Positions 4,081 through 34,400 of a DNA stretch of 64,000 nt are shown here, piece after piece. The notes below the pieces were generated by a model, which did no database searches, was not told the DNA's origin, and saw only the letters and a program-made list of their open reading frames with translations. The position numbers and the translations under genes are program-made. Each line of letters opens with the position of its first letter. Within the stretch, counting starts at the first letter, position 1. The DNA comes from Escherichia coli (lineage in GTDB: Bacteria; Pseudomonadota; Gammaproteobacteria; Enterobacterales; Enterobacteriaceae): the NCBI RefSeq assembly GCF_022846255.1, contig NZ_AP025682.1; one strand, given 5' to 3'.

Positions 4081-4114
<34 letters not shown>

Positions 4115-13693: not shown

Positions 13694-13757
13694 CGTTATT
13701 TTTATCGCACAAGGGTGGGCATCCCTGCCCGTAATGACGTCCCTGAACCTGGGTAGG

Positions 13758-14745: not shown

Positions 14746-14792
14746 TTGTCTTGTATTTATTTATTTTTTAAGTTTATTATCAATAAGTTAAA

Positions 14793-15389: not shown

Positions 15390-15866
15390 AATAGTAGTAC
15401 TCCTGACTGAGATATATTTGAATGAATACCTATAGGAAACCTCAATCGGTCAAAATTAGCCCAATAGATAAAAAGATAACCACACACGAAGTGATGTGGC
15501 TATCAGTCAATTACATTAAATATCATACAAAAATAAAATATCACTGATGTGACAACATCTATTTTCATTGATTTGATTCAATATAACAATAGATTGCAGT
15601 GGATTAACTTCCAGTTGCTTAAAAAATAAAGAAAAAAGTATGAAAACAGGCGAATTTAAGTGATGTGTAAATTTATGAATGATTTTGTTTATTTATTTTG
15701 AAGAACATAAACCATTGTATTTTGTATGGATATGGTTAACTTAATGTTTATTATGATAATTAAGAATCATACTTACAATAACATCAATTAATAAATGGTT
15801 AATCATTTTTGATATATCGTAAGAATAATGTAGTTTTTAACACCATCCCTGGTATCTCAACTATCT

Positions 15867-16469
15867 CTATAAAACAGCGTGACGCTGTCGTCCTCTGGCT
15901 CTATCCCAGATGCCGTAAAAACGCCCTGCATTGCTGGCGGTATACCAGACAGTATGACGAATATTGCGATGTCCAAGATAATCCTGGATAAGTCGCGTAT
16001 CTATTCCCATATTCGCCAAAGCAAAACCACACGAATGGCGTAACATGTGCGGATGAATCTCCAGTGACAACCCGGCATTACCACCGGAAGTCGAGATAAT
16101 ATGGTAAAACTGTTGCCGAGAAAGTGGATTCCCCTTACGTGATAAAAATACCCACTCGCTCTCAGCATGCGGATAAGAAGTACGGATACTCAACCAGTTT
16201 TTTAAAGCCTGAATTTCTTTGTTCAATAGCGGGTGCGTTGTTGAAAAGCCTTTTTTTAATCGATGGATATATATACACTTTGCCTTAAGATCAATATCCG
16301 AAATCCTCAATCGGCAAATTTCACTCGCCCGGAAACCATGAATAAAACAAAGTAATGTCAGACAATAATTACGTGCAGCATGAGGCCCGGTATTTGCTGC
16401 TTTAAGGAGTGATTCGATTTCACTATGGGTCAGGAAGTTCCTTTTTTTGTTATCAGCCTTATTCTTCAT
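15867..16469 (-). CDS. fimB: Tyrosine recombinase FimB, 200 aa
   Basis: MKNKADNKKRNFLTHSEIESLLKAAN...; paralogue of FimE with the same catalytic motifs. Confidence 0.95.
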   Translation of the reverse strand: MKNKADNKKRNFLTHSEIESLLKAANTGPHAARNYCLTLLCFIHGFRASEICRLRISDIDLKAKCIYIHRLKKGFSTTHPLLNKEIQALKNWLSIRTSYPHAESEWVFLSRKGNPLSRQQFYHIISTSGGNAGLSLEIHPHMLRHSCGFALANMGIDTRLIQDYLGHRNIRHTVWYTASNAGRFYGIWDRARGRQRHAVL

Positions 16470-17494
16470 CGTTTTCCCTTATAATTACAGACGCGCACTA
16501 GCTGTGCTGGGTTAGCAATAATCCAACATTTTAATCCTGATTATGTTTATAAAAGCGAACGTTTGCTTAATAACTAACGTAAGTGGACCAGTTCTTCTGA
16601 GTGAACTTAAATGGAGTAGCGATAGTTACTTATAATAACTTTGCCATACAAACGCCATGCTCTTGCATGCTATGTATCTTTATATATTTATCAATCTGAT
16701 ACGAATCGAATAATAACCCTCATCATTAATGCAACTAATCTTATCTATATATCATGTGATATGTTCTGTAACAAGTAAAATCAACATAAAAAATTCAGCA
16801 AAATTTAATATTTGTTCAACTAGCCGTCTCACATATGACATTATTAGTCAACTGCATTTGCCACAAAATGGCTATTTCATGGAACACAGTAATTTCTTAG
16901 TGGCTATTATCATGCTAATGCTTAGGTCCCTAGCGATTATTCCTGCCTGGTTCGTCAGCTTACGCCATGAGATTGTTACATTCCTTTTTCAGACTGTGTA
17001 TTTCCTGGAGATATGGGGGAACGCAGGAGACGCTTTTTCATCTACATTCGTTGGTAAATATGGCTTTGGTCACTGCGACTTAAACCTTCCTCAATCACAG
17101 CTATTCGCCGGGCGATACGGCAAACAAACTATCTGAAACATCATCCTGAAAACACCAACATCTACAAGCCTTTCCAGATCGACTTCAGGGATGACCACTT
17201 ACAAGCCAAAAACCAGGAAACATATTTCATGATGAGAATTATGATCAGCCTGATGGCGGGTAAACACTTATTTTCACCACGCTCACTGAGTTAGCTTGCA
17301 AAGCTTCCCTTGTTTAGACCCTAAATAAATCATTTATAAAACAAATAGTTAAAAGAATGCCTTTAGTTTTTGAAGACCACCTCAAGTGTTCGTCTGGCTT
17401 CACATGGCATCTTCCTCTTAGAAAAAGATCGACATATTTTGTGACACGAATTGCAAATCTCGTTTTGTTGTATGGATTGCGTGATTTTTGATCT

Positions 17495-17514
17495 GGTATA
17501 ACAGGTATAAAGGT
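17495..17514. promoter_or_regulatory. Putative NanR operator (GGTATA repeats) in the fimB-nanC intergenic region
   Basis: ggtataacaggtataaaggt contains tandem GGTATA hexamers, the recognised NanR binding motif, about 420 bp upstream of nanC. Confidence 0.5.
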
Positions 17515-17933
17515 GCACCGCGATAGTCAATGAGACAGGGCATCTCGCAATCTATGGCAAACATCACTTCAGTTCTTTCTCATCGGGTGATGAAAACGCA
17601 CTTCAGTCTGAAAGGAATATGAAAATGAGATCAACAGACACTCTATTTTATGACTCTGGGTAAAATGGATTGAGTAAGTGATATAGCTTACAAACATTCA
17701 AATCAATTAAACATCAGAAGAGATTTTATACTCAGGTATTTAATCTGGTTCTCTGTTTATTTAAATAATGTGGAAAGAGAATTTTCACAGGAGACCTTAT
17801 ACAAAAAATATAAAATACAGCTACTCGTTGCCAAAGACACTATAAGCCTGGCAAAAAATATTACACAACATAAATGCTAATTGTTTATGCGGGCTTTGTA
17901 TTGCTTTCTGTATCCTACAAATGAGTGAAATAT

Positions 17934-18650
17934 ATGAAAAAGGCTAAAATACTTTCTGGCGCATTATTACTGTGCTTTTCGTCACCACTGATTTCTCAGG
18001 CTGCGACACTGGACGTACGTGGTGGATATCGTAGTGGAAGCCACGCCTATGAGACTCGACTCAAAGTCAGTGAGGGATGGCAAAATGGATGGTGGGCAAG
18101 TATGGAAAGTAATACCTGGAATACCATTCATGATAATAAAAAGGAAAATGCCGCACTCAATGATGTTCAGGTGGAAGTTAATTACGCGATTAAACTTGAT
18201 GATCAATGGACGGTGCGCCCGGGAATGTTAACGCATTTTAGCAGCAACGGCACACGCTACGGACCCTACGTAAAACTGTCCTGGGACGCGACAAAAGATC
18301 TTAATTTTGGCATTCGCTATCGTTACGACTGGAAAGCTTACCGACAACAAGACTTATCCGGTGATATGTCTCGTGATAACGTTCATCGTTGGGATGGATA
18401 TGTCACTTACCATATTAATAGTGATTTCACCTTCGCATGGCAAACGACGCTATACAGCAAACAGAACGATTATCGCTATGCAAACCATAAGAAATGGGCG
18501 ACGGAAAATGCATTTGTTCTACAATACCATATGACGCCCGATATTACGCCATACATAGAATATGACTACCTTGACCGTCAGGGTGTTTACAACGGCAGAG
18601 ATAATTTATCGGAAAACAGTTATCGCATTGGTGTGTCATTTAAACTGTAG
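17934..18650 (+). CDS. nanC: N-acetylneuraminic acid outer-membrane channel NanC (KdgM family)
   Basis: Signal peptide MKKAKILSGALLLCFSSPLISQA; ~238 aa beta-barrel-type sequence ending in an aromatic residue; followed by nanM and nanS. Confidence 0.85.
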   Translation: MKKAKILSGALLLCFSSPLISQAATLDVRGGYRSGSHAYETRLKVSEGWQNGWWASMESNTWNTIHDNKKENAALNDVQVEVNYAIKLDDQWTVRPGMLTHFSSNGTRYGPYVKLSWDATKDLNFGIRYRYDWKAYRQQDLSGDMSRDNVHRWDGYVTYHINSDFTFAWQTTLYSKQNDYRYANHKKWATENAFVLQYHMTPDITPYIEYDYLDRQGVYNGRDNLSENSYRIGVSFKL

Positions 18651-18669
18651 TAGACAGGAGACAGTCACA

Positions 18670-19776
18670 ATGAATAAAACAATAACAGCGCTTGCTATCC
18701 TAATGGCTTCATTTGCCGCAAACGCGTCTGTATTACCGGAAACTCCTGTGCCATTTAAAAGTGGTACCGGAGTAATTGATAACGACACTGTCTACATTGG
18801 TTTAGGTAGCGCTGGTACGGCATGGTACAAGCTGGATACACAGGCCAAAGATAAAAAATGGACAGCGTTAGCTGCATTCCCTGGCGGACCGAGAGATCAA
18901 GCAACCTCTGCATTTATTGATGGCAATCTGTATGTGTTTGGCGGCATTGGCAAAAACAGCGAGGGCTTGACTCAGGTATTTAATGACGTACACAAATACA
19001 ACCCCAAAACCAATAGCTGGGTTAAATTGATGTCGCACGCGCCGATGGGCATGGCGGGCCATGTGACTTTTGTACACAACGGCAAGGCTTATGTTACTGG
19101 CGGTGTTAACCAGAATATCTTCAATGGCTATTTTGAAGATCTCAACGAAGCTGGAAAAGATTCAACCACTATAGATAAAATCAACGCCCACTATTTTGAC
19201 AAAAAAGCAGAAGATTATTTCTTCAATAAGTTTCTGTTGTCTTTTGATCCCTCTACACAGCAATGGAGTTACGCTGGCGAATCTCCCTGGTACGGAACGG
19301 CTGGTGCGGCGGTTGTGAATAAAGGTGATAAAACCTGGCTTATTAATGGCGAAGCCAAACCAGGATTGCGAACGGATGCCGTATTTGAACTTGATTTCAC
19401 CGGTAATAATTTAAAATGGAATAAGCTTGCTCCCGTCGCATCACCAGATGGCGTCGCTGGCGGTTTTGCAGGCATGAGCAATGACTCACTTATATTTGCC
19501 GGAGGGGCCGGATTCAAAGGTTCACGAGAAAATTACCAGAACGGTAAGAACTATGCGCATGAAGGCCTGAAAAAATCATATAGCGCTGATATTCATCTTT
19601 GGCATAACGGGAAATGGGATAAATCAGGCGAATTATCGCAAGGTCGGGCCTACGGAGTATCATTGCCCTGGAATAATAGTTTATTAATTATTGGCGGTGA
19701 AACTGCAGGCGGCAAAGCGGTGACGGATTCAGTTTTGATTTCTGTGAAGGATAATAAAGTCACAGTACAAAACTAA
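18670..19776 (+). CDS. nanM: N-acetylneuraminate mutarotase NanM (Kelch-repeat, 368 aa)
   Basis: Start at MNKTITALAILMASFAANA (the upstream track ORF overlaps nanC and is rejected); Kelch-type repeats (GG...LYVFGG, AYVTGG). Confidence 0.9.
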   Translation: MNKTITALAILMASFAANASVLPETPVPFKSGTGVIDNDTVYIGLGSAGTAWYKLDTQAKDKKWTALAAFPGGPRDQATSAFIDGNLYVFGGIGKNSEGLTQVFNDVHKYNPKTNSWVKLMSHAPMGMAGHVTFVHNGKAYVTGGVNQNIFNGYFEDLNEAGKDSTTIDKINAHYFDKKAEDYFFNKFLLSFDPSTQQWSYAGESPWYGTAGAAVVNKGDKTWLINGEAKPGLRTDAVFELDFTGNNLKWNKLAPVASPDGVAGGFAGMSNDSLIFAGGAGFKGSRENYQNGKNYAHEGLKKSYSADIHLWHNGKWDKSGELSQGRAYGVSLPWNNSLLIIGGETAGGKAVTDSVLISVKDNKVTVQN

Positions 19777-19782: not shown

Positions 19783-19815
19783 AGGGCCCCGGTAAAGGGG
19801 CCCTGCTATCAATTT
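19783..19815 (+). terminator. GC-rich hairpin between nanM and nanS (possible attenuator or terminator)
   Basis: agggcccc-ggtaaa-ggggccct perfect 8-bp stem immediately after the nanM stop. Confidence 0.4.
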
Positions 19816-19840
19816 GTCATTTGTATTACGCGAAAATTAT

Positions 19841-20821
19841 ATGAACGCAATAATATCGCCCGATTATTACTATGTTCTTACCGTTGCTGGTCAGTCTAAT
19901 GCCATGGCGTATGGCGAAGGACTACCATTACCGGACAAGGAAGATGCGCCTCATCCCAGAATTAAACAATTAGCGAGATTTGCGCATACACATCCCGGAG
20001 GCCCGTCATGTCACTTTAACGACATTATTCCACTGACTCACTGCCCACACGATGTTCAGGATATGCAGGGTTATCACCATCCTCTGGCAACGAATCATCA
20101 AACACAGTACGGCACCGTTGGCCAGGCACTGCATATAGCACGGAAATTACTGCCCTTTATTCCTGATAATGCAGGGGTTCTCATCGTTCCGTGTTGCCGT
20201 GGCGGATCGGCTTTTACCGCGGGCAGCGAAGGGACATATTCAGAACGGCACGGAGCCAGCCATGATGCTTGTCGTTGGGGAACGGATACTCCGCTGTACC
20301 AAGATTTAGTCAGCAGAACGCGAGTCGCACTGGCAAAAAATCCGCAGAACAAATTCCTCGGCGTATGCTGGATGCAAGGCGAATTTGACTTAATGACCAG
20401 TGACTACGCGTCACACCCTCAACACTTTAATCATATGGTTGACGCCTTTCGTAGGGATCTAAAACAATACCATTCTCAGCTTAATAAAATTACTGACGCG
20501 CCGTGGTTTTGCGGCGATACCACCTGGTACTGGAAAGAAAATTTCCCTCATGCGTATGAAGCTATTTATGGCAATTATCAAAATAATGTTTTAGCCAATA
20601 TTATTTTCGTCGACTTCCAGCAACAAGGTGCAAGAGGACTGACGAACGCGCCTGATGAAGATCCAGACGATTTAAGCACGGGATATTACGGTTCAGCGTA
20701 CCGGTCACCGGAGAACTGGACGACGGCACTGCGAAGCAGTCATTTCAGCGCGGCAGCCCGTCGGGGGATTATTTCTGACAGGTTTGTAGAAGCAATTTTG
20801 CAGTTTTGGCGCGAAAGGTGA
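19841..20821 (+). CDS. nanS: 9-O-acetyl-N-acetylneuraminate esterase NanS (326 aa from MNAIISPDYYY)
   Basis: SGNH-type esterase motif (VAGQSNAMAYG); matches recalled NanS/YjhS; third gene of nanCMS. Confidence 0.9.
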   Translation: MNAIISPDYYYVLTVAGQSNAMAYGEGLPLPDKEDAPHPRIKQLARFAHTHPGGPSCHFNDIIPLTHCPHDVQDMQGYHHPLATNHQTQYGTVGQALHIARKLLPFIPDNAGVLIVPCCRGGSAFTAGSEGTYSERHGASHDACRWGTDTPLYQDLVSRTRVALAKNPQNKFLGVCWMQGEFDLMTSDYASHPQHFNHMVDAFRRDLKQYHSQLNKITDAPWFCGDTTWYWKENFPHAYEAIYGNYQNNVLANIIFVDFQQQGARGLTNAPDEDPDDLSTGYYGSAYRSPENWTTALRSSHFSAAARRGIISDRFVEAILQFWRER

Positions 20822-21794: not shown

Positions 21795-22445
21795 ATGAAT
21801 ATCCGTCAATCATTACATGACCGAATCTATGCAGAATACCCTCAACAGGCTAAAGATATATTACTGTATTTCCCCACTTATGAAATTATGCCATCGACCA
21901 TAAAAATGGTTATGATTAATGAGGTGGTAGCTATAACACCGCAAGAAGATTTTTATACACCAGAGTCTGGTTATTTTACGACTGTCGCCCGACAGTTAGC
22001 GCTGGCTGGATTATCGGCAAGTAGTGGCGAAGTCTTACTCAACCATGGTATCTACCTGACCTCCGCACTGAAACTACCTAAAACACAGATCACAGCCACA
22101 CCCGCGGAGATCATTCTCTGGTCACCTATTGTAGAATGGGAGCTCGAACTCTTTGCCAATATAAAAGTTATTTTCGTTGGCGGCGATATCGCGCGAAAAT
22201 GCCTTAACATCATCGCGAAAAAGCAAACACGTAAACATGCCATCCCTTCAACTCCGACGTACAAACTGATGAATAGCGAATTAGTCTGGAAAGGAATAAG
22301 CATACTTCCTGGATATATTCTTACCGGAAAAAACCTGCTCATTGAAAAGTCAAAAATCGAAATGAATGTCGAACAATTAAGAAAAGGAATTGCGATTTAT
22401 CGCAATAGTAACAGTAACCATACGAATAATTCAGTTCATGAATAA
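21795..22445 (+). CDS. Hypothetical protein (216 aa), AT-rich orphan gene
   Basis: Intact ORF with AT-rich composition unlike its neighbours; no motif I can assign confidently. Confidence 0.45.
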   Translation: MNIRQSLHDRIYAEYPQQAKDILLYFPTYEIMPSTIKMVMINEVVAITPQEDFYTPESGYFTTVARQLALAGLSASSGEVLLNHGIYLTSALKLPKTQITATPAEIILWSPIVEWELELFANIKVIFVGGDIARKCLNIIAKKQTRKHAIPSTPTYKLMNSELVWKGISILPGYILTGKNLLIEKSKIEMNVEQLRKGIAIYRNSNSNHTNNSVHE

Positions 22446-22958: not shown

Positions 22959-25073
22959 TCAATCAGCCACTAATAGCGGACTAGGGATACCAGATGATGA
23001 AACAAACAGCCCTTTTACGGCACGGGTTGCAGCCACATGCAGTAACGCGCGCTCATTAAATAATGCATCACGCTGTTCAACGGGATCATCGGATGCTAAT
23101 GCTTTTATTTCCGGCACAACGCCTTCGTTAATCCCCACCAGGAACACATACTGGAACTCAAGCCCTTTAATACGGTGCATCGTTGCAACTCGCACGCCTG
23201 GGCGTTCATCGCTGTCACCGCTATCATTGCCTAAATTAAATGTCTCAATTCCGGCGTCATTGAGTGCTGATGCGTAGCGGTCGCAAGCATGTTTAGTACG
23301 CGCAGTAATGCAGATATCCTGAGAACGAACCTGACTCGCCAGCAATGCCTGAATTTGCTTGACGAGTGTTGCAGCCTCTTCTTTGAAATCTGCCGCATGC
23401 GTAATCATGGGCTTTTCCCCGTGCAGTAATGACAAATAATCATTACTGGTATCCGCTTCGCCATCGAGGTTATCAACCTTCACACCAGTTAACAGCCCAA
23501 CAGCAAATTGACGCGTCTCTTCTGTGGTCCGATAGTTAATCTTCAATTTTTTACTGCGACGACCACGGACGTTAATACCACACTGACCAAGAACGACCTT
23601 ATTGCGATAAATACGCTGATGCCCATCCCCGACAATAAACAGATCGTTGGGCGACTCGGGAACCAGGCTGCGAATAAGAGTAAATGCCGGGGCACCGATA
23701 TCTTGAGCTTCATCGACGACAATACTGCTATAAGGTAGTTGGACCTGCTTTTCTTTAAACAGAACAATAGCCTCATGCATGGCATCGCCCATTTCGCGCA
23801 GTTTGGCACGCGCCATTTGTGCTCTGAATTCTTCGAAAACTGGCCAGATTTTCGCCCGTTGAATACGGGATAACGCTGTACCACGTCCAACCCGGCTGAC
23901 TTTGAGGTATTCCTCCCGGGTGTAAACCGCATTTGGCTGGACAACGCGTTGCCACTCTTCAGCATAGAAATTGTCAGGTAGCCCCAGTTCGGCAGGTGCC
24001 TGCTGCAAGGCATAGTTCCAGCATTTACGTCGCCCTTCATCGCTGTCGTATACCACGCGGAAATCATAACCGTGGCGTTTTAGTTGGTCGCTCATCCAGG
24101 CATCAATGTTAACGACGTCAATACGCGCCATCTCTTCTCGCGTACACAACCGCTGGAGATTAGCGCGAATATCTGCCGCCAGGTTACGCGTAAAGGTCGT
24201 GAAAAGTACCTTCTTACCGGGTTTATCTGCCAGACGCTGAGATAACCACCGCGCACGGTGCATTGCAACAACCGTTTTCCCTGTACCTGCACCGCCCAGT
24301 ACTCGTACCGGACCATTAGCGGGCGACTCCACCAGTTTTCGCTGGCTCGGATGCAGAAATACACGCCATTTTTCTAAAGGCGCATTAAGCATCTGCAACA
24401 GCTCCTGTTCATTTTCAACGACATGGAAGCGACGTTTACTTCGTTCAATCGCCTCCATAAAGTCGTTGGTATCAACAGGCTCGTCACGATGATCGTTAAA
24501 CTCTTCCAGCACTTCCTGGTAATCCAGCCCTTCTGCCAGCCAATGCAGGGGTTCCCAGGCTTCTGCTGGCATTATGCTTTCAAGTTGATTAAGCCCGGCT
24601 TCATCGGTAAGCGCCATCACCTGATCAATAAAGACAGGCGGCACACCCAGGGCCAGAATCTGTTCCGCGCTGTAAGCTGCGAAGAGTTTCGGTTTATCTA
24701 GCACCGTTTCCGCCGCCGGTTTGATATAGCTAATATCAATAACCTGAATTGCGCCGGTAACCGGGTGAATTGAACAATCATGCCGCCGCGCCCAGTCGTA
24801 TGCTTCGTCGTGTTTATCCACCCACATCAGCATATACAGGGCACCCTGTTCAGGTTTCAGAACAATGCCGCGATAAGTTTGATCGATTCGCACCGAATGG
24901 ACATTTTTACTGCGCGCATCGTGGATCTTTTCATAGTTAAGTCCATTACTGGTCGGGTCCTGACGGAATTTGGAGATGAATTCCTGCACCTTTTTTTGCT
25001 GTGCTTTTGGGATCCGCGCGAATGCGCCCAGAAAACCATCAGAAAGTGCCACCTTGGGCGTTTGCACCGTCAT
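22959..25073 (-). CDS. UvrD/Rep-like superfamily 1 helicase with a ~200-aa N-terminal domain of unknown function (704 aa)
   Basis: Walker A GGAGTGKT, motif II VVDEAQD, C-terminal UvrD-like motif (MHRIKGLEFQYVFLVG); start overlaps the upstream gene's stop (ATGA). Confidence 0.8.
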   Translation of the reverse strand: MTVQTPKVALSDGFLGAFARIPKAQQKKVQEFISKFRQDPTSNGLNYEKIHDARSKNVHSVRIDQTYRGIVLKPEQGALYMLMWVDKHDEAYDWARRHDCSIHPVTGAIQVIDISYIKPAAETVLDKPKLFAAYSAEQILALGVPPVFIDQVMALTDEAGLNQLESIMPAEAWEPLHWLAEGLDYQEVLEEFNDHRDEPVDTNDFMEAIERSKRRFHVVENEQELLQMLNAPLEKWRVFLHPSQRKLVESPANGPVRVLGGAGTGKTVVAMHRARWLSQRLADKPGKKVLFTTFTRNLAADIRANLQRLCTREEMARIDVVNIDAWMSDQLKRHGYDFRVVYDSDEGRRKCWNYALQQAPAELGLPDNFYAEEWQRVVQPNAVYTREEYLKVSRVGRGTALSRIQRAKIWPVFEEFRAQMARAKLREMGDAMHEAIVLFKEKQVQLPYSSIVVDEAQDIGAPAFTLIRSLVPESPNDLFIVGDGHQRIYRNKVVLGQCGINVRGRRSKKLKINYRTTEETRQFAVGLLTGVKVDNLDGEADTSNDYLSLLHGEKPMITHAADFKEEAATLVKQIQALLASQVRSQDICITARTKHACDRYASALNDAGIETFNLGNDSGDSDERPGVRVATMHRIKGLEFQYVFLVGINEGVVPEIKALASDDPVEQRDALFNERALLHVAATRAVKGLFVSSSGIPSPLLVAD

Positions 25074-28000
25074 TTGTCACCTCCGGACAGATGTTGCAAT
25101 GTATTTTCGTCAATTGGCCCGAATGCTACGTGCCAACCCCTGGTTGTGAATAATGGAATAAATTCTTGATTATCAATAATCAATGCCCATTTTTGTGATG
25201 GCCAGGCGAGATCGGCTTCCGCAATAATTTCCCCCTCATCATTTTGCAATTCGTAGCCGAGAGTCGGCGCAGAGAGAGAATGAGACTGAAGCAACGCGAT
25301 CTCTTCAGCGCTTAATAAGCCAAACTCAATAATCTCAGCCCAACTCTCATCAGTCTCTGGTACTGCCTCTGGCGTTGCCGAAACTTTAGTGTCAACGCTT
25401 TCCTGCGGTAAATGCACGGCTTTACGGCTGGTAAAGGTTATATCCGGCAGGAACTGTAACAGGTTTACCAGTCGCCAGAAGCCATTGAGTCCCGCTTCAT
25501 AACCGTCATCCTGCGTATAGCGATCGTCAAAACAGATATGCAAACGCAGCCAGCTGCGCATTTGTGCGACACTGGTCGTCGGTTTAATGGCTTGTTGTGG
25601 CAACACCGAAGCCAGCTCAATAAATTGCTGCGATGAGTTACAGCTATCGAGTAAACCACCAAAGACAAACGGTTCGTCTGGCAAAAGCTCTGCTAGCCGC
25701 CAGGCTGGCGCGTTTTCCTGCATTTCATAGGCATACTTTTGTTTCGTTCCCGCGTCCTGTGACTTCTTCACATCCAACCACACCCAGGCATGTGCAGCAG
25801 CCATTTTCTGCCATAACTGCGTTCTTCCTCCCGGATCGGCGAGATAATCCAGCAGCAGTGCAAAACTGTTGCGTTCCCGGAACGACGCTTCAAGGGCCGC
25901 AAAGTTGGTATCGTGAAACAGGTTATAAAACTTAGGCTGTTTCATATCCGGGTTATGCCCAAGCCCCAGGACATCCTGAACATGTTTAAGCCCAGGCTCT
26001 TTGAGATCGGCCCACGTGACTGTCCACACCCAGAAATTATCGCTATCCCGAATCGCCTGGCGTTTTTGCACATCCTCTGCGACGCTATTTTTGTGAAACG
26101 CAAAGCCATCAAGGAAAATAGCTACCGGTTTAATGGCATCAGACTGCATAAGCGGATATAGCACGTAATCCGGGCGACAAGGGATCCCCACCGCCTCTTT
26201 AGCGCCTAAATCCACCTGAGCTTTAAGATGCCAGCTCATCATCGGTTCGCTGCGGGTGTTAATAATCCACCCAGCGCCCTGATGCGCGTAACTGCGACTG
26301 ACAATCAGGTTTTTATTTTCTTGCAGGCAGCTAATAAACCGTTTTTCCAGCTCACTGCCCATCATGGCTTCGAGGGAAATGTTTTTGATGGAATCAATTA
26401 CCCGTATCGAATCTCTTGCCTGCAAAATTTTCGCCAGCAAGAGACGCGCCTGATCGCGGGAGACATACTTCATGCGCCCACGGTCACGGTAAGCGTAAAC
26501 GCAACGATAACAACCATCTTTATGCGTATCATGGTTGCAACTGCATTCCACTATCGCCTGATAGGCCAGTTCAAGTAATTTCAGCAAATTGTCGGGAGTG
26601 CGCATCAGCTCTTTAAGAGAACCAGTTCCCCCCGGGACGGTATCGTAAATCACCAGATACTGCCGCCAGGATTCGCCTTCATTTTCCGGCTCGCGGTACA
26701 CAACGCCTTTCAGGTGATCGACATTCCCCTTGAAGTAATGTTTAAGACCTAGCTGGATCGCCGCCCCAAGAGAAGCCTCCACGACACGGTCATTACTGTA
26801 ACTGCTTACCGGGAGCAGAATACGCAACGCTTCTGACTCCAGCTGGCGATAGAGATAGAGATAATCTTCGAACTTCGCCTTTTCGGGTTCCGTGCGATAT
26901 TTGCAGCTCAAATCATGACGGGGTTCATGATCGCGAGGACGCTGTACCATGCCGCACCCGAGGCAAACTTTAAACCCGGTTCGCTTCTTCGCTTCTCCGG
27001 CAATCATCAACTCATTGGCATCATCCGCCATTTTGCCGAAGTTGATATCCCGCAGGGTGACTTTGCTTAAAAATTCAAAACCAAACGGAACTTCGCCTTC
27101 CTCAATCGCGTATGCCGCCGATACATCTTCTTTTTCGAAACTAACCAATAGCTGACGCTGGAAGAAAGCAGGTTCACGGCTGTCGCTCTCGTCGCTGATC
27201 TGGCTATCACGTGCGCTGGCGCGGGCATACACCTGGCGAAGTTTCAGCAGCGTGGTTTTTTGTCCGGCGTCGGCCCACCCCGGTGTGCCACATTTCGGGC
27301 AATATTTATGCTGGTCGCCCGTCTGGTCGATATTTTCGCTGTAGTTACAGTGGCTACAGATACGCCAGTTCTCCGGCTCAGAGACCTTCAGGTCTATCTG
27401 CTCAATTTCAACTTTATGCCCACCGGCATAGAAATTATTCAGCGGAGCCAGCTCAGCCAGCGCCGTTGATGCCGGGCGTTCATATTCGAAAGTGGTGTTT
27501 TGATATTCACGTGCTTCCCCGCCTTCTTTACGCCGCCAGAGCACAGAACGTAACGTAATACCGGCTTCCGGGAAGGCGTAGTTAGGCAGCAGACCTTCAT
27601 CCGTGAGGAAATTCAGCGTCTGCTTATTGTTGATTTGATTGACCAGCGCCATCAGCGCCTGCCGTTCTGAAGTTAACTCGCGCATATCGCTGTCAAAGTT
27701 TTGATCGCGCGGCGCGTTCTCCAGCTTATCGATACTGCGCTTGAGTTTATCGATGCGTGAACGCAGAGATTTGCGATCTTCCACCAGCAGTTTTAACGCC
27801 TCTTCGATACGCTGCACCAGAGAGCGTTGTCCTGGCGCGCCCTGAAGATAAGACAACAACTGTTGGCGAGTTTCTGCGGCAAGATCGGGGAAGATCGCCG
27901 TAAATTGTGCAGCAATCTCCGCATGATGCTGTTCGATATATCTCAGTAAGTTATACGGAAAACCCGATTTACGCCCGAACTCCAGCTCATCCAGCATCTG

Positions 28001-31000
28001 TTTGACGTTTTTACAGATAGCGGATTCTGGTACACCGGTTTTCACCCAGTTATCCATACAAAAAGCTGCCAGCTGGCGTTCGAGAATAGCCGTTGCATTG
28101 AGGAAGACGCCAGGAGCCTGCACCTGGCCCTGCATCATCTCCAGTGGTTCTTCAAAGAAAAACTGATCGTGCGGGTTCCCTTCTGCCACGGTAATGTTTA
28201 ACGCGTTACCATCTTTACGACCGGCGCGACCAATACGCTGCAAGTAGTTGGCCTGAGCAGGTGGGACAGAACAGAGTAAAACGGTGGAAAGATCCCCAAC
28301 GTCGATACCCATCTCCAGCGTCGGTGTTGCCGACAACAGGTTGATATTCCACGGTTGGTTGCCGCGGTAGAACGATTTTTCGGTGGCTTCGCGATCTTCA
28401 CGGCTAAGCAGCCCCGTGTGTTCTGCGCCCTGCACGCGCGCGATGTCCATGTTCTCCCAACGCCAGGTCGCCGTATTGTCGACTTCCTGGTAACGACCTT
28501 CACAACGTAAAGAGAGACAAGGCGCATTACGCCACTGCCACCCTTGATCGGCCGGAGCCCGGACAACCTCACGGCAACATGAGCAATTAAGCTGAACGAC
28601 GTCACGGCTCACCACCAGCGCCGAAGGCACCAGTCCCCAGGCTTCACGCCCTTTGGTGTCAAAATCTTTTACTACTCCGGCTATTTTCAACGCCGTAAAC
28701 AGGCGTCGTAACACCGTTTCCGCAACGCTACTGATAAACAGATTATTGCCGTTACTCAGCGTGCGATTGATCCAATGCTGATACCAACTGGGGTTAGACT
28801 TCGCGCCAATCAGGCGATGGAAACCATTAATTTTTTCAAACGACGCGTAAGCCGGTTTACGCGTTTTCGGACCGATAGAAGGCATATAGCGCGAGGTACG
28901 CTCTTTTTGCGTCATCATAAAGGTCGTGCCATCACGGCGATAACTTTCGAACGCCGGATGCATAACGGCCCCGGCCTGGCGTTGATACCAGATAACCCCC
29001 AGCGCCAGGTGCGCTACCTGCTCGACGCTCACACCGGACATCTCATCACCCAGCTCTTCACAAAGCTGTTGATGCAGGGCGGTAATTGCCGGATTAAAGC
29101 GATCTTTATCCACTCCAGCAACGGCATAACCGGTGGCTTCCAGCGTACGTCCGATACGCGCGCGCAGGGTGAATTCGCTGTACACCTCCCAGTCGAGGCG
29201 CAGGGAAACCAGCTCCGGCAGATCGGAGTTCTCCGCCAGTTTGCCTTCATTTTTCAGTGTCTGATAATCATTCAGCCACTGCATATTTGGTGCGATGAAG
29301 TTCGCTGCAAAATGAGCATCGTCCGGTGAACGTTCACGCGTTTGTTGGCAAACACGCGCCGCGAACGCATCCAGCGGTAATGTCTCTTTTTCGCCAAGAA
29401 CACTGGCGATTTGCCCACGAATCATCAGCGGCCAGGTTCGGGCAGTAAAAAAGCTGGCACGATGCGCGGCGTCTTGTACCGAGTCAGAAAACGTAATCAG
29501 CTTTTTATGTTCGTTGAACTGGCTGCCATAAAGCTGGTGAATCATCACCGCCGACAGACTGGCAGCCCGTGACCCCAGAATCGAAATCCCCTGTTTGCTG
29601 TTGCAGTACGGGCATTCATTAGCAAACTCCAGCTCGTCCTTACGCTCTTTGAGCATATCTGGGATCAGTACCTGCAACAGCTCTGTATGACCACAATGTC
29701 CACACTGGACGCTGGACTGTCGGTTCAGTTTCAGGCAGGTAGGGCACAGTTTCTGGTGTGCGCCACTGACCGCTTTTTCGTTGTTATCCGGGAAAGCAAG
29801 GACGATGGAGCGCCCTTTTTCAAAGAACTGGCGATAAATGCCGTCGAGGTCTGTTTCCAGCTGAACGCTTTGCCCATGACGCAGGCTGGCCCAGCCGGTT
29901 GCGTGGCAGTCACGGCAGTGGATAACCGGCAAATAGTGTTCGCGATCTTCCACCGCCACATCATCGGCAAACACCAGTCTCGGTGTTTTCGCCACGCTGG
30001 CGACCAGACGACGCATCTCACGAAGCCACAACTGGGAGCGCAGTTGCACAAACGGCAGCACCGGGCGCGCTTTCTTCGCCTGGAGACGTTTTTGCCGATC
30101 GTGGTCCGTTTCCGGTACTTCGAGACGTGCCTGCGCGATCAGCGCCAGAATGCTTTGCAGCACGCGTCGGGCATGGTCGGCGCTTTCTGCCAGCATGACC
30201 TGGAGATTTTCCAGACACTCTCGTTCAGAGAGGATCCCGCCTTGCAGATCATGGAGTAAGACATGCATCACGCTGTGGCGGCGTAACAGTGACCCCAGCG
30301 CAATACGCTTTTCACGCCCGTCGTCGCTCTCCAGATCGTCCGGGAGTTGCAAGTCGCTGTCGGGGAACCACAAAGGGATTTGTCCGTTGAGATACGCCAC
30401 CGGGGTAGCGTAACTCTGCGGGTCCAGGGCCGAAGCGACCTCCGGCCCCGGATACTGACTGTACGCAATGGCGTAATCCTGCAAGTACTCCGCTGCCGTG
30501 TAGCGATCTTCGCGAATAACGGCGTCATCGGTAAACGGCTGGTCAAAGATTGTTTTTGCGTAATCGAGCAGTTGCCCCAGTTCGTCGCCGACGGTCGCTG
30601 ATGTCCCGACGCAGGCGAATCGTTGGTTATCTACACCTATGTGATGCTTCAGACGTCGCACCAGACAGGCCAGATCCGACCCTTGCGCGCCATCAAACGT
30701 ATGCAATTCATCCACGACCAGGTAACGCAATGAACCGGGCTGGTTGTAACGCCAGAGCGGCTGATCGCCAGGGCGCATCAGCAGGTAGTCGAGCATTTTG
30801 TAGTTGGTCAACAGGATGTCCGGCGGGCTTTCGCGCAGCGTGTGCTTACAGGTAATGACCTTTTCTGCCGACATTTTTTTGCTGGGTTCGATTTCGCTGT
30901 CGCCGACAAACAGGCCGACGGTCACCTTGCCATGCAGTTGTGGATCGCTGGCGATGGTTTTGGCGAAACGGCTGGCCTGATCGGTTGCCAGGGCGTTCAT

Positions 31001-31411
31001 CGGGTAGATGATAATCGCTTTAACCCCGGCTTGTGACGCGCCCGCGCAGTGGTTGAGCAGCGGGAACATAAAACATTCTGTTTTACCGGAGCCGGTACCG
31101 GTAGCGACCAGTGTCGGCTGTGGCGCGTCGCTTCCCAGACGCTGAAATGCCCGGGCCTGATGCGCGTGCGGCGGGAACGGCAGCGTCAGATTAGGGAAGA
31201 AATTCAGCGGTAAGTCACTTTTACAAAACGGCAACTGGGCGGAAAGGTATGGTCCTTTCAGCAGCGTTTCAGGCTGGGCCAGAAATTGCTCCAGCATTGA
31301 GACATTATCGTTATTCTCGCCGTTAAACAGCGGGCTGTTTAGCGGGAACGCCGCCCGTAAAAAGGCGGCAACGCTGTCGGCGACCTGCCGACTGACAACG
31401 GATGGCAGCAT
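25070..31411 (-). CDS. Giant DEAD/DEAH-box helicase with Zn-ribbons and a DUF1998-like module (DruE-like / fused DrmA-DrmB-like), 2113 aa, with a C-terminal Vsr/DUF559-like nuclease-fold motif
   Basis: Motif I ATGTGSGKTECFMFP, motif II VVDELH, motif VI QRIGRAGR; several CxxC clusters (CSHCNYS...CPKCG, CLGCG, CSCNH...CYRC); DUF1998-like VIYDTVPGGTGS; C-terminal DYVLYP...IFLDGFAFH; 1-nt overlap with the upstream methyltransferase gene (TGATG). Confidence 0.75.
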   Translation of the reverse strand: MLPSVVSRQVADSVAAFLRAAFPLNSPLFNGENNDNVSMLEQFLAQPETLLKGPYLSAQLPFCKSDLPLNFFPNLTLPFPPHAHQARAFQRLGSDAPQPTLVATGTGSGKTECFMFPLLNHCAGASQAGVKAIIIYPMNALATDQASRFAKTIASDPQLHGKVTVGLFVGDSEIEPSKKMSAEKVITCKHTLRESPPDILLTNYKMLDYLLMRPGDQPLWRYNQPGSLRYLVVDELHTFDGAQGSDLACLVRRLKHHIGVDNQRFACVGTSATVGDELGQLLDYAKTIFDQPFTDDAVIREDRYTAAEYLQDYAIAYSQYPGPEVASALDPQSYATPVAYLNGQIPLWFPDSDLQLPDDLESDDGREKRIALGSLLRRHSVMHVLLHDLQGGILSERECLENLQVMLAESADHARRVLQSILALIAQARLEVPETDHDRQKRLQAKKARPVLPFVQLRSQLWLREMRRLVASVAKTPRLVFADDVAVEDREHYLPVIHCRDCHATGWASLRHGQSVQLETDLDGIYRQFFEKGRSIVLAFPDNNEKAVSGAHQKLCPTCLKLNRQSSVQCGHCGHTELLQVLIPDMLKERKDELEFANECPYCNSKQGISILGSRAASLSAVMIHQLYGSQFNEHKKLITFSDSVQDAAHRASFFTARTWPLMIRGQIASVLGEKETLPLDAFAARVCQQTRERSPDDAHFAANFIAPNMQWLNDYQTLKNEGKLAENSDLPELVSLRLDWEVYSEFTLRARIGRTLEATGYAVAGVDKDRFNPAITALHQQLCEELGDEMSGVSVEQVAHLALGVIWYQRQAGAVMHPAFESYRRDGTTFMMTQKERTSRYMPSIGPKTRKPAYASFEKINGFHRLIGAKSNPSWYQHWINRTLSNGNNLFISSVAETVLRRLFTALKIAGVVKDFDTKGREAWGLVPSALVVSRDVVQLNCSCCREVVRAPADQGWQWRNAPCLSLRCEGRYQEVDNTATWRWENMDIARVQGAEHTGLLSREDREATEKSFYRGNQPWNINLLSATPTLEMGIDVGDLSTVLLCSVPPAQANYLQRIGRAGRKDGNALNITVAEGNPHDQFFFEEPLEMMQGQVQAPGVFLNATAILERQLAAFCMDNWVKTGVPESAICKNVKQMLDELEFGRKSGFPYNLLRYIEQHHAEIAAQFTAIFPDLAAETRQQLLSYLQGAPGQRSLVQRIEEALKLLVEDRKSLRSRIDKLKRSIDKLENAPRDQNFDSDMRELTSERQALMALVNQINNKQTLNFLTDEGLLPNYAFPEAGITLRSVLWRRKEGGEAREYQNTTFEYERPASTALAELAPLNNFYAGGHKVEIEQIDLKVSEPENWRICSHCNYSENIDQTGDQHKYCPKCGTPGWADAGQKTTLLKLRQVYARASARDSQISDESDSREPAFFQRQLLVSFEKEDVSAAYAIEEGEVPFGFEFLSKVTLRDINFGKMADDANELMIAGEAKKRTGFKVCLGCGMVQRPRDHEPRHDLSCKYRTEPEKAKFEDYLYLYRQLESEALRILLPVSSYSNDRVVEASLGAAIQLGLKHYFKGNVDHLKGVVYREPENEGESWRQYLVIYDTVPGGTGSLKELMRTPDNLLKLLELAYQAIVECSCNHDTHKDGCYRCVYAYRDRGRMKYVSRDQARLLLAKILQARDSIRVIDSIKNISLEAMMGSELEKRFISCLQENKNLIVSRSYAHQGAGWIINTRSEPMMSWHLKAQVDLGAKEAVGIPCRPDYVLYPLMQSDAIKPVAIFLDGFAFHKNSVAEDVQKRQAIRDSDNFWVWTVTWADLKEPGLKHVQDVLGLGHNPDMKQPKFYNLFHDTNFAALEASFRERNSFALLLDYLADPGGRTQLWQKMAAAHAWVWLDVKKSQDAGTKQKYAYEMQENAPAWRLAELLPDEPFVFGGLLDSCNSSQQFIELASVLPQQAIKPTTSVAQMRSWLRLHICFDDRYTQDDGYEAGLNGFWRLVNLLQFLPDITFTSRKAVHLPQESVDTKVSATPEAVPETDESWAEIIEFGLLSAEEIALLQSHSLSAPTLGYELQNDEGEIIAEADLAWPSQKWALIIDNQEFIPLFTTRGWHVAFGPIDENTLQHLSGGDK

Positions 31412-34400
31412 CAGGCGCTCTCCTTATCTTGTGCAAAGAACGCCCAGGCCACTTTGTAGTCGTCCTCGCGATCTGGCTTGATAAACGGAGCCTGCCAAGT
31501 GACGGTACGGCGCTCGCCTTCGTCGCTGCGGGTATAGTCATCAAAGGTGACGCTGACGGTACCGGTTTGCAGATGTTTGACATCATCCCAACCGATGGCT
31601 TGATCGGTGCAGTCACCGCCGGTCCACTCTGGGCTATCGACGTTAAAGACAAAGCCGTTTTTCAGGTCAGCTTTACGCGCGGTGCGAGGCAAGCCAACGC
31701 CCACCAGCCCTTTGCTTGGGGTAAAGATAATGCGACCGTTTTGATCGTACCAGGTATCCGCTTCGTACTGGCGCATCACCGGGAACTGTACACGGTAAAT
31801 GGTAAGCAGTTCTTCGAGGGTTAACCCCAGCGCCTGCGCCACCAGTACGTCGATTTCCACCAGCGCCTGACGGCGACTGTAGTCAGAGCGTAAGGCGCAG
31901 TTACGCTGCCACTCTGGGGTCAGATTGGTGAAGAAATCTTGTGGGAGCTGCGGGAGATCGCGGCTCCAGCGTTGGGTATTGAAGTCTGGGGTGTAGCAGG
32001 ATTGCCAAAGGCCAGCATATACATCATTTACAGAATTTAATGATAATACTAAGCAGTATAATAATGCCTTTTGTCTCGGATTGAATAATACGTATGAGAA
32101 ACAATCAAGCATCTGATGTAAGTTTGCCTTGCCAGTAGATTTACAAATAAAATCAAAAGGTAAAGAAAAACACATACCTGAATGTTCAAGTAACAGATTC
32201 TGTGAGCTATAGCAGTAAGAACGTACTGCGTTCATGTGACTTATTTCTGGCGGATAAATAGCACTAATTAGTGTACGTTCCCCCGATTGAGCCAACATGG
32301 CTCTGATAGCTAAGCGATAATAATCTGTTACCTTCTTCGGTTCATCTTCAGCCAGTTCAGTCCATGTAACGCATGGAGTACGTTTGGCATACTCCTGTGC
32401 ATCACATGCCGGAATATAGTTAGTGCGCGGCAGATAGTCATCAGGCAGAGTTAGCAAGTCGAGGTTATCGTATGCTTTATTCGTGTCGCAGATCTCTTTG
32501 GGTGTGTTATAGAAAGGATTGCCGACAAAGAAATGTGGACCAGATACAACCCATTGTGAAGGATTTTTTGGAAACTGTGTTTTTCGCAAAATTGTGCCGT
32601 CATTTTGTGCATTAACTTCATTCCAATGCTGGGTTGCATAATAGCTGTTTGTAAAATCATTTAATCTCTTAGGTTGACGAGCAAACTTCTCAAGCACCGC
32701 TACCAATTGTTTAGAATGTAATGCAGGAAGACGAGCTTGTAGGGCCGGCGTGTCGTCAGAATCATAGAGACGAGCAAATAGTCCTAATTTTATAAAATCA
32801 ATAGTCACAATTCGATCTAAATGTCCCTGAAAATTCCATTTAGCTTTGGCCTTTCCATCAATCTCAGCTTCTTCTTTAATGCCTGGAACGTTACCATCAC
32901 CTTTATGTTCGAAACATGCATCAATTGTTTGAGGAATAAACAAATTTACTATGTTCGAAAATACTGGCATTTGAGAAAATGGACCATAGATATTGATGCT
33001 GAATCTAGTGTGATTATCCACCTCAGCAAATAGTTTTATTTCATTCGCAAACTGAAAATGAGCCCTCAACCTCGGATAAACTGATGCACGCATCTGCCCA
33101 CCAGTAGGATCATCATAAATCCCTTCCGGGTGCAGGAGTCCTGTCACACCTCTTTCCGCCCCCAAACGCCACGCCTGCGGCAGGAAGCATTTATACAAAT
33201 TCGCTTTTTGACCTGCTAGTACCGGGTAGTTCTGCTGCGCATTGAGGAAGTTTTGCATCCCTTCACAGCCTTCATACTCGCTGCGCCAGGCCGCTTCCAG
33301 CGCCGGGATCTGGTTAAAGGTATCAATACGCAACGTGGCCAGCTTCGATGCACTCAGCTTACGCAGCACAAATTCCGGCTCGTAATCACCCAGCACGCCC
33401 GCTTCCTGCCATTCCACTTTCAGCCACGGCGGGTTTCCGAGCATCAGGTCAAAACCGCCGCGCTCGGCAAACAAGTCGCAGAACTCCAGATCCCAGTGGA
33501 AGAAACGGTACTGCTTTCTCAGGGCATCGACAATCGCCAGACGCGGCAAATGACGGAACAACACCTCGGTTTTCAGACGACCTGCGCCGGAAAACAGTGA
33601 AGACTCTTCTCGCAGCAGACCTTCTTCGGCAAACAGATCGCCGGTGGTGTGCTCCGCAACTTCAGTGACTTTTTCCGTGATTACAATCCCGTCGAGCAGG
33701 GTTTCAATCTCAAACAACCAGGTGCCGCGATCCGGTAGCTCATCGGCTTTGTCGATCGGCCAGAACCACAGCGCGCACCAGTAGTCCATTACCCAACGCA
33801 GCTTCTGGTAGGCACTGTTATCTTCAAGACGACCACTGAAGGTTTCATCTTTACTGCTCAGCGAAGAACGCGTCTGCTCGCTGTTTTCTGCCGGCCACAC
33901 CGGGTAGCTGTCGGCGGTTTTCAGACGTTCTGCTTTAAGTTGCTGGCGATAGGTGTTCCACAGAGCTTCCACCTTTTCGCTGATACGCTGCACATCAGCA
34001 ATCTCATGCCCGGCAAAGCTTTTAATAAACTCTTTGCGCCAGCTGTCCAGGGCTTTGAAGTCATCCGGATAACGCTGCTTAACAGTTTTATCGCTGTAGT
34101 TAGCCATACCGCCGTCGGGCAGCAGGAAGTGAAAAATCTGCGTCTCTTCACGCGGCGTGTTCATCGCCAGTTCAACCGGCTCGCTGTTAAGCCAGCTCGG
34201 ATCTTTGGCTTTTTTGTAGGTCAGTTCACTCTTGTTAAATACCTGACGGCGCGCGCCCACCAGCGAGTTACCGCAGTGCAGCTGGTAACCAAACCACGGT
34301 ACAAACGCATCGCCACTAATGGCGTTCAGCCACAGTGACACTTCCGCCAGTTCCACCGCCACCGGGTTTAAGTCCACGCCGAAAACGTTGTTGTCGGCAA

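Follow-up and report, generated by a model that had tools for sequence, protein, structure and literature searches.

The helicase gene at positions 22959-25073 of the window, by which we mean the whole 64,000-nucleotide stretch of Escherichia coli DNA analysed here, is very probably armD of a four-gene ARMADA type II anti-phage system, in which its product would have the general role of an accessory motor. ArmD carries a RelE-like head in front of its UvrD-like motor, and since YoeB-type residues are kept in this head in at least 95% of homologues at 35-50% identity, we judge that it probably still functions, as a module that cleaves or grips RNA, and is not a relic. ArmD itself is already known: it was named, experimentally tested, and had its N-terminal domain labelled 'RelE-like' in 2025; a literature search for newer work on its mechanism or structure, or for other RelE-UvrD fusions, gave only the two ARMADA preprints of 2025.

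Identity and operon context of armD

The open reading frame is uninterrupted in both the ORF list and the translation and encodes 704 amino acids plus a stop codon; it lies on the minus strand, a point omitted from the sequence-only reading of this DNA. The product is identical at 700 of 704 positions (99.4%) to WP_000218177.1 of O157:H7 EC4115, the ArmD reference of ARMADA type II (Suppl. Table S2, PMC12458937), i.e. four amino-acid substitutions separate this ArmD from WP_000218177.1 (E. coli NCTC 12900, EDL933, ATCC 8739). Matches to armD at ≥95% nucleotide identity are found in 525 of 5426 complete E. coli genomes (roughly 10%), and there are more than 150 clusters of full-length homologues at 35-50% identity (E < 1e-124); given this distribution, it is not a chance ORF. 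At E≤1e-30 the family has roughly 1,700 members. The genes of the operon and the junction between the last two are as follows.

36348-39206, minus strand: armA, SNF2/BrxHII/DrmD-like helicase, 952 aa (PADLOC DrmD 1.4e-99, BrxHII 9e-60)
31411-36345, minus strand: armB, PglX/DrmMI-like DNA methyltransferase, 1644 aa (PADLOC type IIG REase-MTase 3e-284, DrmMI 4e-57)
25070-31411, minus strand: armC, YprA/DruE-like DEAD/DEAH helicase, 2113 aa (PADLOC DruE3 4e-104)
25070-25084, minus strand: armC-armD junction, with an ATGA start/stop overlap at 25070-25073 and a GGAGG Shine-Dalgarno at 25080-25084, read directly from the sequence
22959-25073, minus strand: very probably armD, the fourth and last ARMADA type II gene (ORF list; 700/704 to WP_000218177.1)

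All four genes are co-directional, with gaps or overlaps of no more than 4 nt, and the order armA (BrxHII/SNF2-like), armB (PglX-like), armC (YprA-like), armD is that of ARMADA type II (PADLOC and NCBIfam). The armA product scores 349.7 bits against NCBIfam DISARM_DrmD, under the cut-off of 610, and the armB product has weak NCBIfam matches to PglX models. The C-terminal segment of the armC product is ZorE-like (PADLOC); the EC4115 gene at the position of armC, equal to it in length (2113 aa), is WP_000937974.1, the ArmC reference of ARMADA II (PMC12458937), and ArmC is described as a YprA/DruE-like helicase-nuclease. The identification of ArmD thus rests on its near-identity to the reference, on upstream genes whose order and families are as published, and on K266 and D454 falling on the Walker A and Walker B residues.

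The ATGA overlap and the GGAGG Shine-Dalgarno imply that translation of armD would be coupled to that of armC. Distant homologues give five informative contexts: in three, the armD homologue comes directly after a YprA/DruE-like gene, and the other two are without ArmC, one following a type I HsdR gene and the other found with a type IV-like PLD helicase and a methyltransferase; members of the ArmD family thus need not have ArmC as a partner. Class 1 DISARM (drmD-drmMI-drmA-drmB-drmC) offers a parallel in both family and order, with DrmD, DrmMI, and DrmA plus DrmB corresponding to ArmA, ArmB, and ArmC, whereas its last position is taken by the PLD nuclease DrmC, which is unrelated to the RelE-UvrD fusion ArmD.

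A promoter and terminator scan around armD returned nothing interpretable above shuffled expectation. The defence island that contains ARMADA II is inserted next to nanS and also carries Druantia III and Zorya II, with ARMADA II downstream of both, an arrangement shared with EHEC O-island 172; no tRNA gene marking the integration site of the island was found in the 64-kb window.

The nanS insertion site and yjhR

The sequence-only reading had considered the gene a possible intact counterpart to yjhR, a K-12 pseudogene, in which case K-12 would keep a remnant of this operon. The two share a chromosomal position and an orientation, armD here and yjhR in K-12 each directly adjoining nanS, and each is a member of helicase superfamily 1, but the cargo is different. 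The best BLASTP alignment between ArmD and yjhR has E=0.49 and covers only a generic SF1 motif, and in a tblastn search of the K-12 region with ArmD the yjhR interval stayed without a match at a cut-off as loose as E≤10. By contrast, the MkoC profile of Mokosh type II, 1136 positions long, matches yjhR over its positions 812-1135 (PADLOC, E=3.8e-139), a span covering the helicase C-terminus and the PLD nuclease, and this match identifies yjhR as the stump of a Mokosh MkoC. We accordingly reject the idea of a K-12 counterpart, to which the BLASTP, tblastn, and MkoC results leave practically no probability. Megablast with armD matched 532 genomes, and an even sampling of 40 rows over the ranked matches contained no K-12 record.

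MkoC of Mokosh type II shares with ArmD the integration spot beside nanS and membership of superfamily 1, but it lies on a different SF1 branch (best PADLOC matches MkoC and MkoA), carries a PLD nuclease at its C-terminus, and has no similarity to ArmD that could be detected. Homology between the window and K-12 ends at window position 20824, which is the end of nanS; nanS is intact here, whereas at the O157:H7 EC4115 junction it is truncated. As a MkoC stump, yjhR marks the nanS-proximal site as a hotspot for defence cargo.

Published phage-defence data

Membership of the gene in a defence operon, also proposed by the sequence-only reading, is borne out, the operon being ARMADA type II. That reading had further asked whether deletion of this gene alone abolishes protection, and the published answer depends on the setting. 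With a near-identical allele on a plasmid, either deletion of armD or the K266A substitution abolishes protection against HK022, all four arm genes are needed, and D454N leads to a partial loss of defence (PMC12458937); in native EHEC EDL933 the effect of the armD deletion is weaker, and it is the least affected of the arm mutants (10.1101/2025.09.22.677730). The weaker effect in the native host counts against the mechanism that we propose below. The published ArmD mutants all lie within the ATPase motifs (PMC12458937).

The mode of defence has also been addressed: ARMADA blocks phages directly and non-abortively, its cells being intact and metabolically normal upon infection in propidium-iodide and resazurin assays, and protection persists at high multiplicity of infection (PMC12458937).

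The helicase core

The product is indeed UvrD-like, a helicase that has a distinct module of ~240 aa at its N-terminus, with Pfam UvrD-helicase at residues 241-490 and UvrD_C at 509-693; the GGAGTGKT motif and the N-terminal peptide quoted earlier are both present in the ORF, with Walker A at residues 260-267. The parts of the protein are listed here from the N-terminus.

24735-25055, minus strand: RelE/YoeB-fold domain, residues 7-113, with conserved E48, R62, R68, H88, D89, W94, and Q110
24669-24734, minus strand: variable linker, residues 114-135, without regular secondary structure and with reduced pLDDT (81-90) in both models
24369-24668, minus strand: acidic helical domain, residues 136-235 (helices 136-230 in both models)
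22962-24368, minus strand: SF1A UvrD/PcrA/Rep-type ATPase core, residues 236-704, without 2B (Pfam UvrD-helicase, AAA_19, UvrD_C)
24273-24296, minus strand: Walker A/motif I GGAGTGKT, residues 260-267, with K266 (motif location)
23700-23717, minus strand: Walker B/motif II VDEAQD, residues 453-458, with D454 (motif location)

Helicase motifs I-VI are all present in ArmD and invariant across 82 homologues; within Walker A, G260, G263, T264, G265, and K266 are invariant and A262 and T267 nearly so, and within Walker B, D454, E455, Q457, and D458 are invariant. Positions 103-279 of the Pfam UvrD_C model are missing, the two matched stretches being only 4 residues apart, and the spacing from motif IV to motif V is only 105-118 residues across the ArmD family; as read from these alignments, the core has lost the regulatory 2B subdomain.

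Searched against the PDB, the ArmD family profile finds UvrD at 2.4e-40, with UvrD, UvrD1, PcrA, and Rep spanning 1e-40 to 1e-32 and GajB at 3e-11, and the best Foldseek matches of the core are again UvrD, PcrA, and Rep. These SF1A 3'-5' DNA helicases have all helicase motifs in common with ArmD and are the best profile and structural matches of residues 236-704. The intact SF1A motifs and the closest solved structures would also fit a housekeeping role for ArmD in DNA repair or replication, as a helicase paralogous to UvrD, Rep, PcrA, or HelD; however, this is extremely improbable, since ArmD lacks 2B, has an extra N-terminal module of 235 aa, and scores far under every NCBIfam equivalog cut-off (PcrA 99.7 vs 911, Rep 92.1 vs 951, and UvrD 89.5 vs 965 bits), and since the gene is not core-genome (only ~10% of E. 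coli genomes), lies in a defence island with translational coupling to armC, and is tied to defence by the published phage assays (PMC12458937).

Both ARMADA papers label ArmD 'GajB-like', and Gabija GajB is comparable, as a short ATPase of UvrD type whose defence operon also encodes an adjacent partner bearing a nuclease. If ArmD worked as GajB does, it would be a UvrD-like sensor of nuclease-made DNA ends that hydrolyses nucleotides to starve the phage, with no translocating helicase activity. The best PADLOC matches are indeed GajB (PDLC00132, E=2.9e-36, among more than 20 GajB models), the published HHpred match is to GajB 8IUD_A at 6.1e-32, and the short core of ~465 aa is GajB-like in size. 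We nevertheless consider this unlikely: GajB is far more distant from ArmD than UvrD is (3e-11 vs 2e-40), it is missing from the top 50 Foldseek matches and from the single-sequence PDB matches, and it has no RelE-like head; the neighbours of armD are armC, armB, and armA, with no adjacent GajA-type OLD nuclease, and metabolism does not collapse in ARMADA cells upon infection. 'GajB-like' is therefore a loose label, and the motor is better described as a UvrD/PcrA/Rep-type core without 2B.

The RelE/YoeB-type N-terminal domain

Residues 1-240 have no Pfam match in this sequence and no PADLOC match; phmmer of residues 1-110 against the PDB gave nothing under E=0.5. The domain is not nameless, as had been supposed, but was published as 'RelE-like' in 2025 from a single HHpred match (E=0.0085; 2025 ARMADA papers). 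Further support for that call comes from a confident model, from structure searches by two methods, from a profile match independent of these, and from conserved residues of a YoeB-type active site. The head has the fold with two helices against an antiparallel sheet that is characteristic of the RelE/ParE superfamily, and it ranks with the RNase branch of that superfamily, not the ParE branch. PHROG phrog_1967 ('DNA helicase', with the same head) matches ArmD over residues 42-163 only.

In YoeB, Glu46 serves as general base, His83 as general acid, and Arg59 and Arg65 as transition-state or substrate arginines, and Tyr84 is needed for activity (PMC3814384). In a sequence-profile alignment, with coordinates not superposed, four of these five catalytic residues have conserved ArmD equivalents: E48, R62, and R68 align to K-12 YoeB E46, R59, and R65, and H88 to the YoeB C-terminal His. 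Across 82 homologues at 35-50% overall identity these four are kept in 78, 78, 79, and 80, respectively, and the head as a whole matches the helicase core in conservation (39.0% vs 39.2% mean pairwise identity). The position of YoeB Tyr84 is occupied in ArmD by a conserved Asp, D89, and the nearby Y92 is found in only 61 of the 82 homologues; the lack of a Tyr84 equivalent counts against a live RNase.

The principal alternative, and one that we find credible although somewhat short of even, is that the head is catalytically dead and acts as a structural adaptor, i.e. a surface for docking ArmC or another Arm protein or a nucleic-acid-binding wedge, so that ArmD would contribute only ATPase activity. 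The replacement of Tyr84 by D89, the missing antitoxin gene, and a defence that is non-abortive and without metabolic shutdown are all in keeping with such a role, and the invariant W94 and conserved A91 and A95 on the helix after D89 would fit a protein interface. On the other hand, at least 95% of homologues retain equivalents of the general base, general acid, and arginines, a polar set that a structural role would not normally preserve, and the domain groups with RNases and not with ParE. The ARMADA papers and the literature search contain no RNA cleavage assay of ArmD, and we put real RNase activity of the head at about an even chance.

The comparison with the ribosome-dependent mRNA endonucleases YoeB, RelE, and YafQ also brings out differences: those are free toxins of ~85 aa, whereas the ArmD head is fused to 590 aa of further protein, has two extra beta-strands (residues 98-113) that extend the sheet, is without a Tyr84 equivalent, and comes with no antitoxin gene. 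No antitoxin-like ORF flanks armD; armC overlaps its start, and downstream there are only ORFs of 32-61 aa that match no tested family.

The structural matches of the head include the CRISPR-associated protein Cami1 (PDB 8phb, 8phj), which the PDB titles describe as bound to cA4 and to the 70S ribosome, and whose RelE-like fold matches the ArmD head. By analogy with Cami1, ArmD could be an abortive-infection effector in which the helicase senses phage DNA and frees a RelE-type toxin that shuts down translation and so stops or kills the infected cell. The YoeB/RelE fold with its conserved catalytic equivalents, together with the ribosome-bound Cami1 structure among the matches, would be expected in that case, but intact and metabolically normal cells in the propidium-iodide and resazurin assays, protection at high MOI, and the native-host data, in which the armD deletion strain is affected less than any other arm mutant, make it very unlikely. 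ArmD also differs from Cami1 in that its head is joined to an ATPase motor, and ARMADA is reportedly non-abortive.

Between head and motor, the linker (residues 114-135) has a mean pairwise identity of 15% vs 39% for the flanking domains, and the acidic helical domain (136-235) has one of 30% and no Pfam or PADLOC match. Residues 116-235 carry a net charge of -16 (family mean -14, range -24 to -3). The high pTM of the ArmD models (0.89-0.91) points to fixed packing of the domains, and the conserved acidic domain together with the missing antitoxin suggests that the head may be controlled in cis.

A proposed mechanism

In the mechanism that we favour, ArmD would be made in step with ArmC and would work beside it as an ATP-driven ssDNA motor on unmodified phage DNA, which we regard as reasonably probable. 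Given that no antitoxin gene is present, we propose that the acidic helical domain would hold the RelE-like head in check in cis. Plausible substrates of the head would be phage transcripts, either ribosome-bound or nascent, or the RNA in DNA:RNA hybrids where the complex engages phage DNA. Any RNase activity of ArmD must be local or mild, because ARMADA neither arrests metabolism nor kills cells; further, the 704-aa fusion may not fit in the ribosomal A site.

A more specific form of this mechanism makes ArmD a single-chain, toxin-antitoxin-like switch within a restriction-type system: the head would be a live YoeB-type RNase, the acidic domain (136-235) its cis mask, and the 2B-less UvrD motor would unmask it upon engaging phage DNA at the expense of ATP. 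We offer this only tentatively, as a rather doubtful proposal.

If the switch operates as described, phage transcripts or hybrid RNA would be cut locally without global translation arrest, and the sensing of DNA would be coupled to the cleavage of RNA in a non-abortive defence. Such a switch could also explain why the RelE-UvrD module recurs beside type I and type IV restriction genes.

Identity and surroundings of armD

The open reading frame that the sequence-only reading placed at 22959-25073 is present at exactly those coordinates on the minus strand and encodes a 704-residue protein (start, MTVQTPKVALSDGF) whose SF1 motifs are intact, among them Walker A, GGAGTGKT (residues 260-267), and motif II, VDEAQD (453-458). 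Pfam UvrD-helicase (residues 241-490) and UvrD_C (509-693) bear out its description as a UvrD-like helicase, and residues 1-240, the N-terminal domain that had been left unassigned, have no Pfam match. The four-gene arrangement seen here matches exactly that of ARMADA type II (armABCD), reported in two 2025 preprints (PMC12458937; 10.1101/2025.09.22.677730). The published ArmD and ArmC references, WP_000218177.1 and WP_000937974.1 (PMC12458937), are the accessions annotated at the equivalent locus of O157:H7 EC4115, and ArmD of the window is identical to WP_000218177.1 at 700 of 704 positions. Because there is a near-identical reference ArmD with published experiments, the gene is already known: it is ArmD, real, correctly delimited, described and experimentally validated. 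Of 5426 complete E. coli genomes, 525 carry it at ≥95% nucleotide identity, O157:H7 among them, and full-length homologues form more than 150 clusters at 35-50% identity.

Genes around armD (window coordinates)
22959-25073, minus: armD, directly after the YprA/DruE-like gene
25070-31411, minus: second YprA/DruE-like helicase (armC)
31411-36345, minus: large PglX/DrmMI-like methyltransferase
36348-39206, minus: SNF2/DrmD-like helicase
39430-45753, minus: DruE, Druantia type III (PADLOC E=0)
45744-49103, minus: DruH, Druantia type III (PADLOC E=0)
49258-52788, plus: complete Zorya type II operon (ZorA2, E=3e-302; ZorB2, 4e-104; ZorE2, 2e-176)
54334-55263: HNH protein (PDLC04132, 3e-25)
55374-56372: PDC-S11 candidate (9e-114)
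56499-57554: Wadjet type III JetD
57567-62003: Wadjet type III JetC (E=0)
62006-62902 and 62905-63909: probably JetB and JetA

armD is the last of six minus-strand genes running in one direction, in which DruH and DruE form a classic Druantia type III pair separated by 224 nt from the SNF2/DrmD-like gene. The armD ATG overlaps the stop codon of armC (ATGA), with GGAGG 6 nt upstream, indicating translational coupling of armD to armC. The Zorya II operon is divergent from druH, the same layout as on EHEC O-island 172; a PADLOC search with the ORF at 62006-62902 gave no match; and on the other side of armD lie nanCMS and the fim operon. The C-termini of ArmC (25070-25669, minus) and of the island ZorE (51685-52788, plus) have a short domain in common (40% identity over 57 aa, E=5e-9), and PADLOC ZorE2 also matches ArmC residues 2021-2096; this common domain may be relevant to the reported synergy of co-located systems.

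The nanS junction and K-12 yjhR

ArmD had also been proposed as a possible intact counterpart of the K-12 pseudogene yjhR. The positional part of that proposal holds, i.e. yjhR adjoins nanS in equivalent orientation in K-12, but the sequences are unrelated. The window and K-12 are homologous only as far as window position 20824, where nanS ends. In the K-12 region, tblastn with ArmD returned nothing in the yjhR interval even at E≤10, and the best pairwise BLASTP match (E=0.49) covers a generic SF1 motif. yjhR (NC_000913.3 4535015-4536031; 13016-14032 of the K-12 region, L001) matches instead the Mokosh type II MkoC profile (PADLOC E=3.8e-139) over positions 812-1135 of 1136, the last 324, which comprise the SF1 helicase C-terminus and a PLD/HKD nuclease; judged by this match, it is the C-terminal third of MkoC. 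These searches refute ArmD as the intact form of yjhR, and what K-12 keeps at this hotspot is not a remnant of the armD operon but the truncated end of another defence gene. Defence cargo at the nanS-proximal site thus differs from strain to strain.

Between nanS and armD, a gap of 2.1 kb holds a 216-aa ORF (21795-22445, plus) whose only match, to the uracil-DNA-glycosylase superfamily, is weak (Pfam UDG, E=0.004), PADLOC and PHROG searches giving none; in O157:H7 EC4115 the equivalent stretch carries, by annotation, a transposase-domain pseudogene with a frameshift. nanS is truncated in EC4115 (L002, the EC4115 locus, 17527-18093; C-terminus missing per annotation) whereas it appears full-length in the window (19814-20821), so that lineages differ at the island junction.

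The ArmD motor

The full-length ArmD model is confident (pLDDT 93.8, pTM 0.91), and its best Foldseek matches are UvrD, PcrA and Rep (E ~1e-24), with GajB absent from the top 50. The family profile scores UvrD at 2.4e-40, PcrA at 5e-38 and Rep at 3e-32, and GajB at only 3e-11; because GajB falls so far below the others, "GajB-like" is a loose label, and its use reflects how broad the PADLOC GajB models are. A housekeeping helicase is ruled out, all scores being far below the NCBIfam orthologue cut-offs. Pfam UvrD_C matches in two pieces that leave out model positions 103-279, and motifs IV and V are only 105-118 residues apart throughout the family; the 2B subdomain is therefore absent. Rep is a helicase activated by 2B removal.

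Deletion of any one of the four arm genes abolishes protection against HK022, as does ArmD K266A, while D454N reduces it (PMC12458937); these residues are the Walker A lysine and Walker B aspartate of the window ArmD. In native EHEC EDL933, deleting armD has a smaller effect than the other arm mutations (10.1101/2025.09.22.677730), so that the preprints disagree on armD essentiality: protection is abolished on a plasmid (BL21-AI, HK022), versus the least-affected arm mutant in native EDL933 (Bas18). Published work has established that full ARMADA defence requires ArmD, that the nucleotide-binding site of ArmD is essential, and that the defence is direct and non-abortive, because infected ARMADA cells are intact and metabolically normal (PMC12458937). 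This physiology and the profile distances both speak against ArmD depleting nucleotides as GajB does and against its being an abortive toxin. ArmD is probably made in step with ArmC, alongside which it would probably work on unmodified phage DNA as an ssDNA motor powered by ATP.

A YoeB-type head and an acidic domain

The interest now left in ArmD lies in its predicted RelE-like head. The published RelE call is one HHpred match (3BPQ_D, E=0.0085), made without structural comparison or mutants (PMC12458937). With 82 homologues as input, AlphaFold2 models ArmD 1-245 confidently (pLDDT 94, pTM 0.89), and Foldseek places E. coli YoeB at the top and also lists ribosome-bound Cami1; a profile of the N-domain alone matches S. 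aureus YoeB across the whole domain (E=7e-4), and Pfam ParE_like matches 18 of the 82 homologues at E≤0.1, 3 of them at E≤0.001. The N-terminus of phrog_1967 ("DNA helicase", 776-position profile) itself matches ArmD 42-163 (24585-24950; E=4.6e-5), so this head also occurs on helicases encoded by some phage or satellite genomes.

In the alignments, ArmD E48, R62 and R68 correspond to K-12 YoeB E46, R59 and R65, and H88 to the C-terminal histidine of YoeB. The YoeB equivalents serve as general base, general acid, and substrate-contacting and transition-state-stabilising arginines (PMC3814384). Conservation among the 82 homologues is high (E48, 78; R62, 78; R68, 79; H88, 80), and mean pairwise identity is 39.0% in the RelE-like domain, 39.2% in the helicase core and 15% in the linker (114-135). 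YoeB Tyr84 is the sole active-site element without an ArmD equivalent; a conserved Asp stands there instead, and a Tyr four residues further on is kept in 61 of 82 homologues. The YoeB-type head probably still works, as a module that cuts or binds RNA; the main rival reading is that it is a dead adaptor.

The helical domain at residues 136-235 is acidic throughout the family, and strongly so: residues 116-235 carry a net charge of -16 here (family mean -14, range -24 to -3), with family means of +2.8 for the head and +5.7 for the motor. The pTM of both models (0.89-0.91) indicates fixed packing of the domains, which would set the acidic one against the head. No antitoxin gene lies beside armD, where armC overlaps the start and downstream there are only short ORFs without a match to the families tested. 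An acidic domain in a fixed position against a RelE-type head is the form that an antitoxin within the same chain would take, and we propose that this domain restrains the head in cis and that the head acts locally.

Distribution of the RelE-UvrD module

Among seven distant homologues examined, five had informative upstream context. In three of the five (loci L003, L004 and L009) the ArmD homologue directly follows a YprA/DruE-like helicase. An 878-aa family member with an extra N-terminal DUF4145 (L006, 3861-6497) directly follows a type I HsdR gene, and another (L011, 10001-22110; 38% identity) has no ARMADA genes nearby; after it come a small methyltransferase (mad2-like), a type IV-like PLD-DEAD helicase and a type II-A CRISPR-Cas9 locus. 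The L004 protein (locus span 2247-19151) has 1699 aa, with ~1000 extra C-terminal residues; it follows a 2076-aa YprA/DruE-like helicase, ArmA and ArmB are absent, and a UvrD-PD-(D/E)xK (AddA-like) gene and another UvrD-like gene come next, a layout that may be an undescribed ARMADA-related arrangement.

The module has been stated to follow ARMADA II "almost always"; its range is somewhat broader than that, and the contexts of these five homologues therefore mark the RelE-UvrD module as a portable add-on to restriction machines that translocate DNA.
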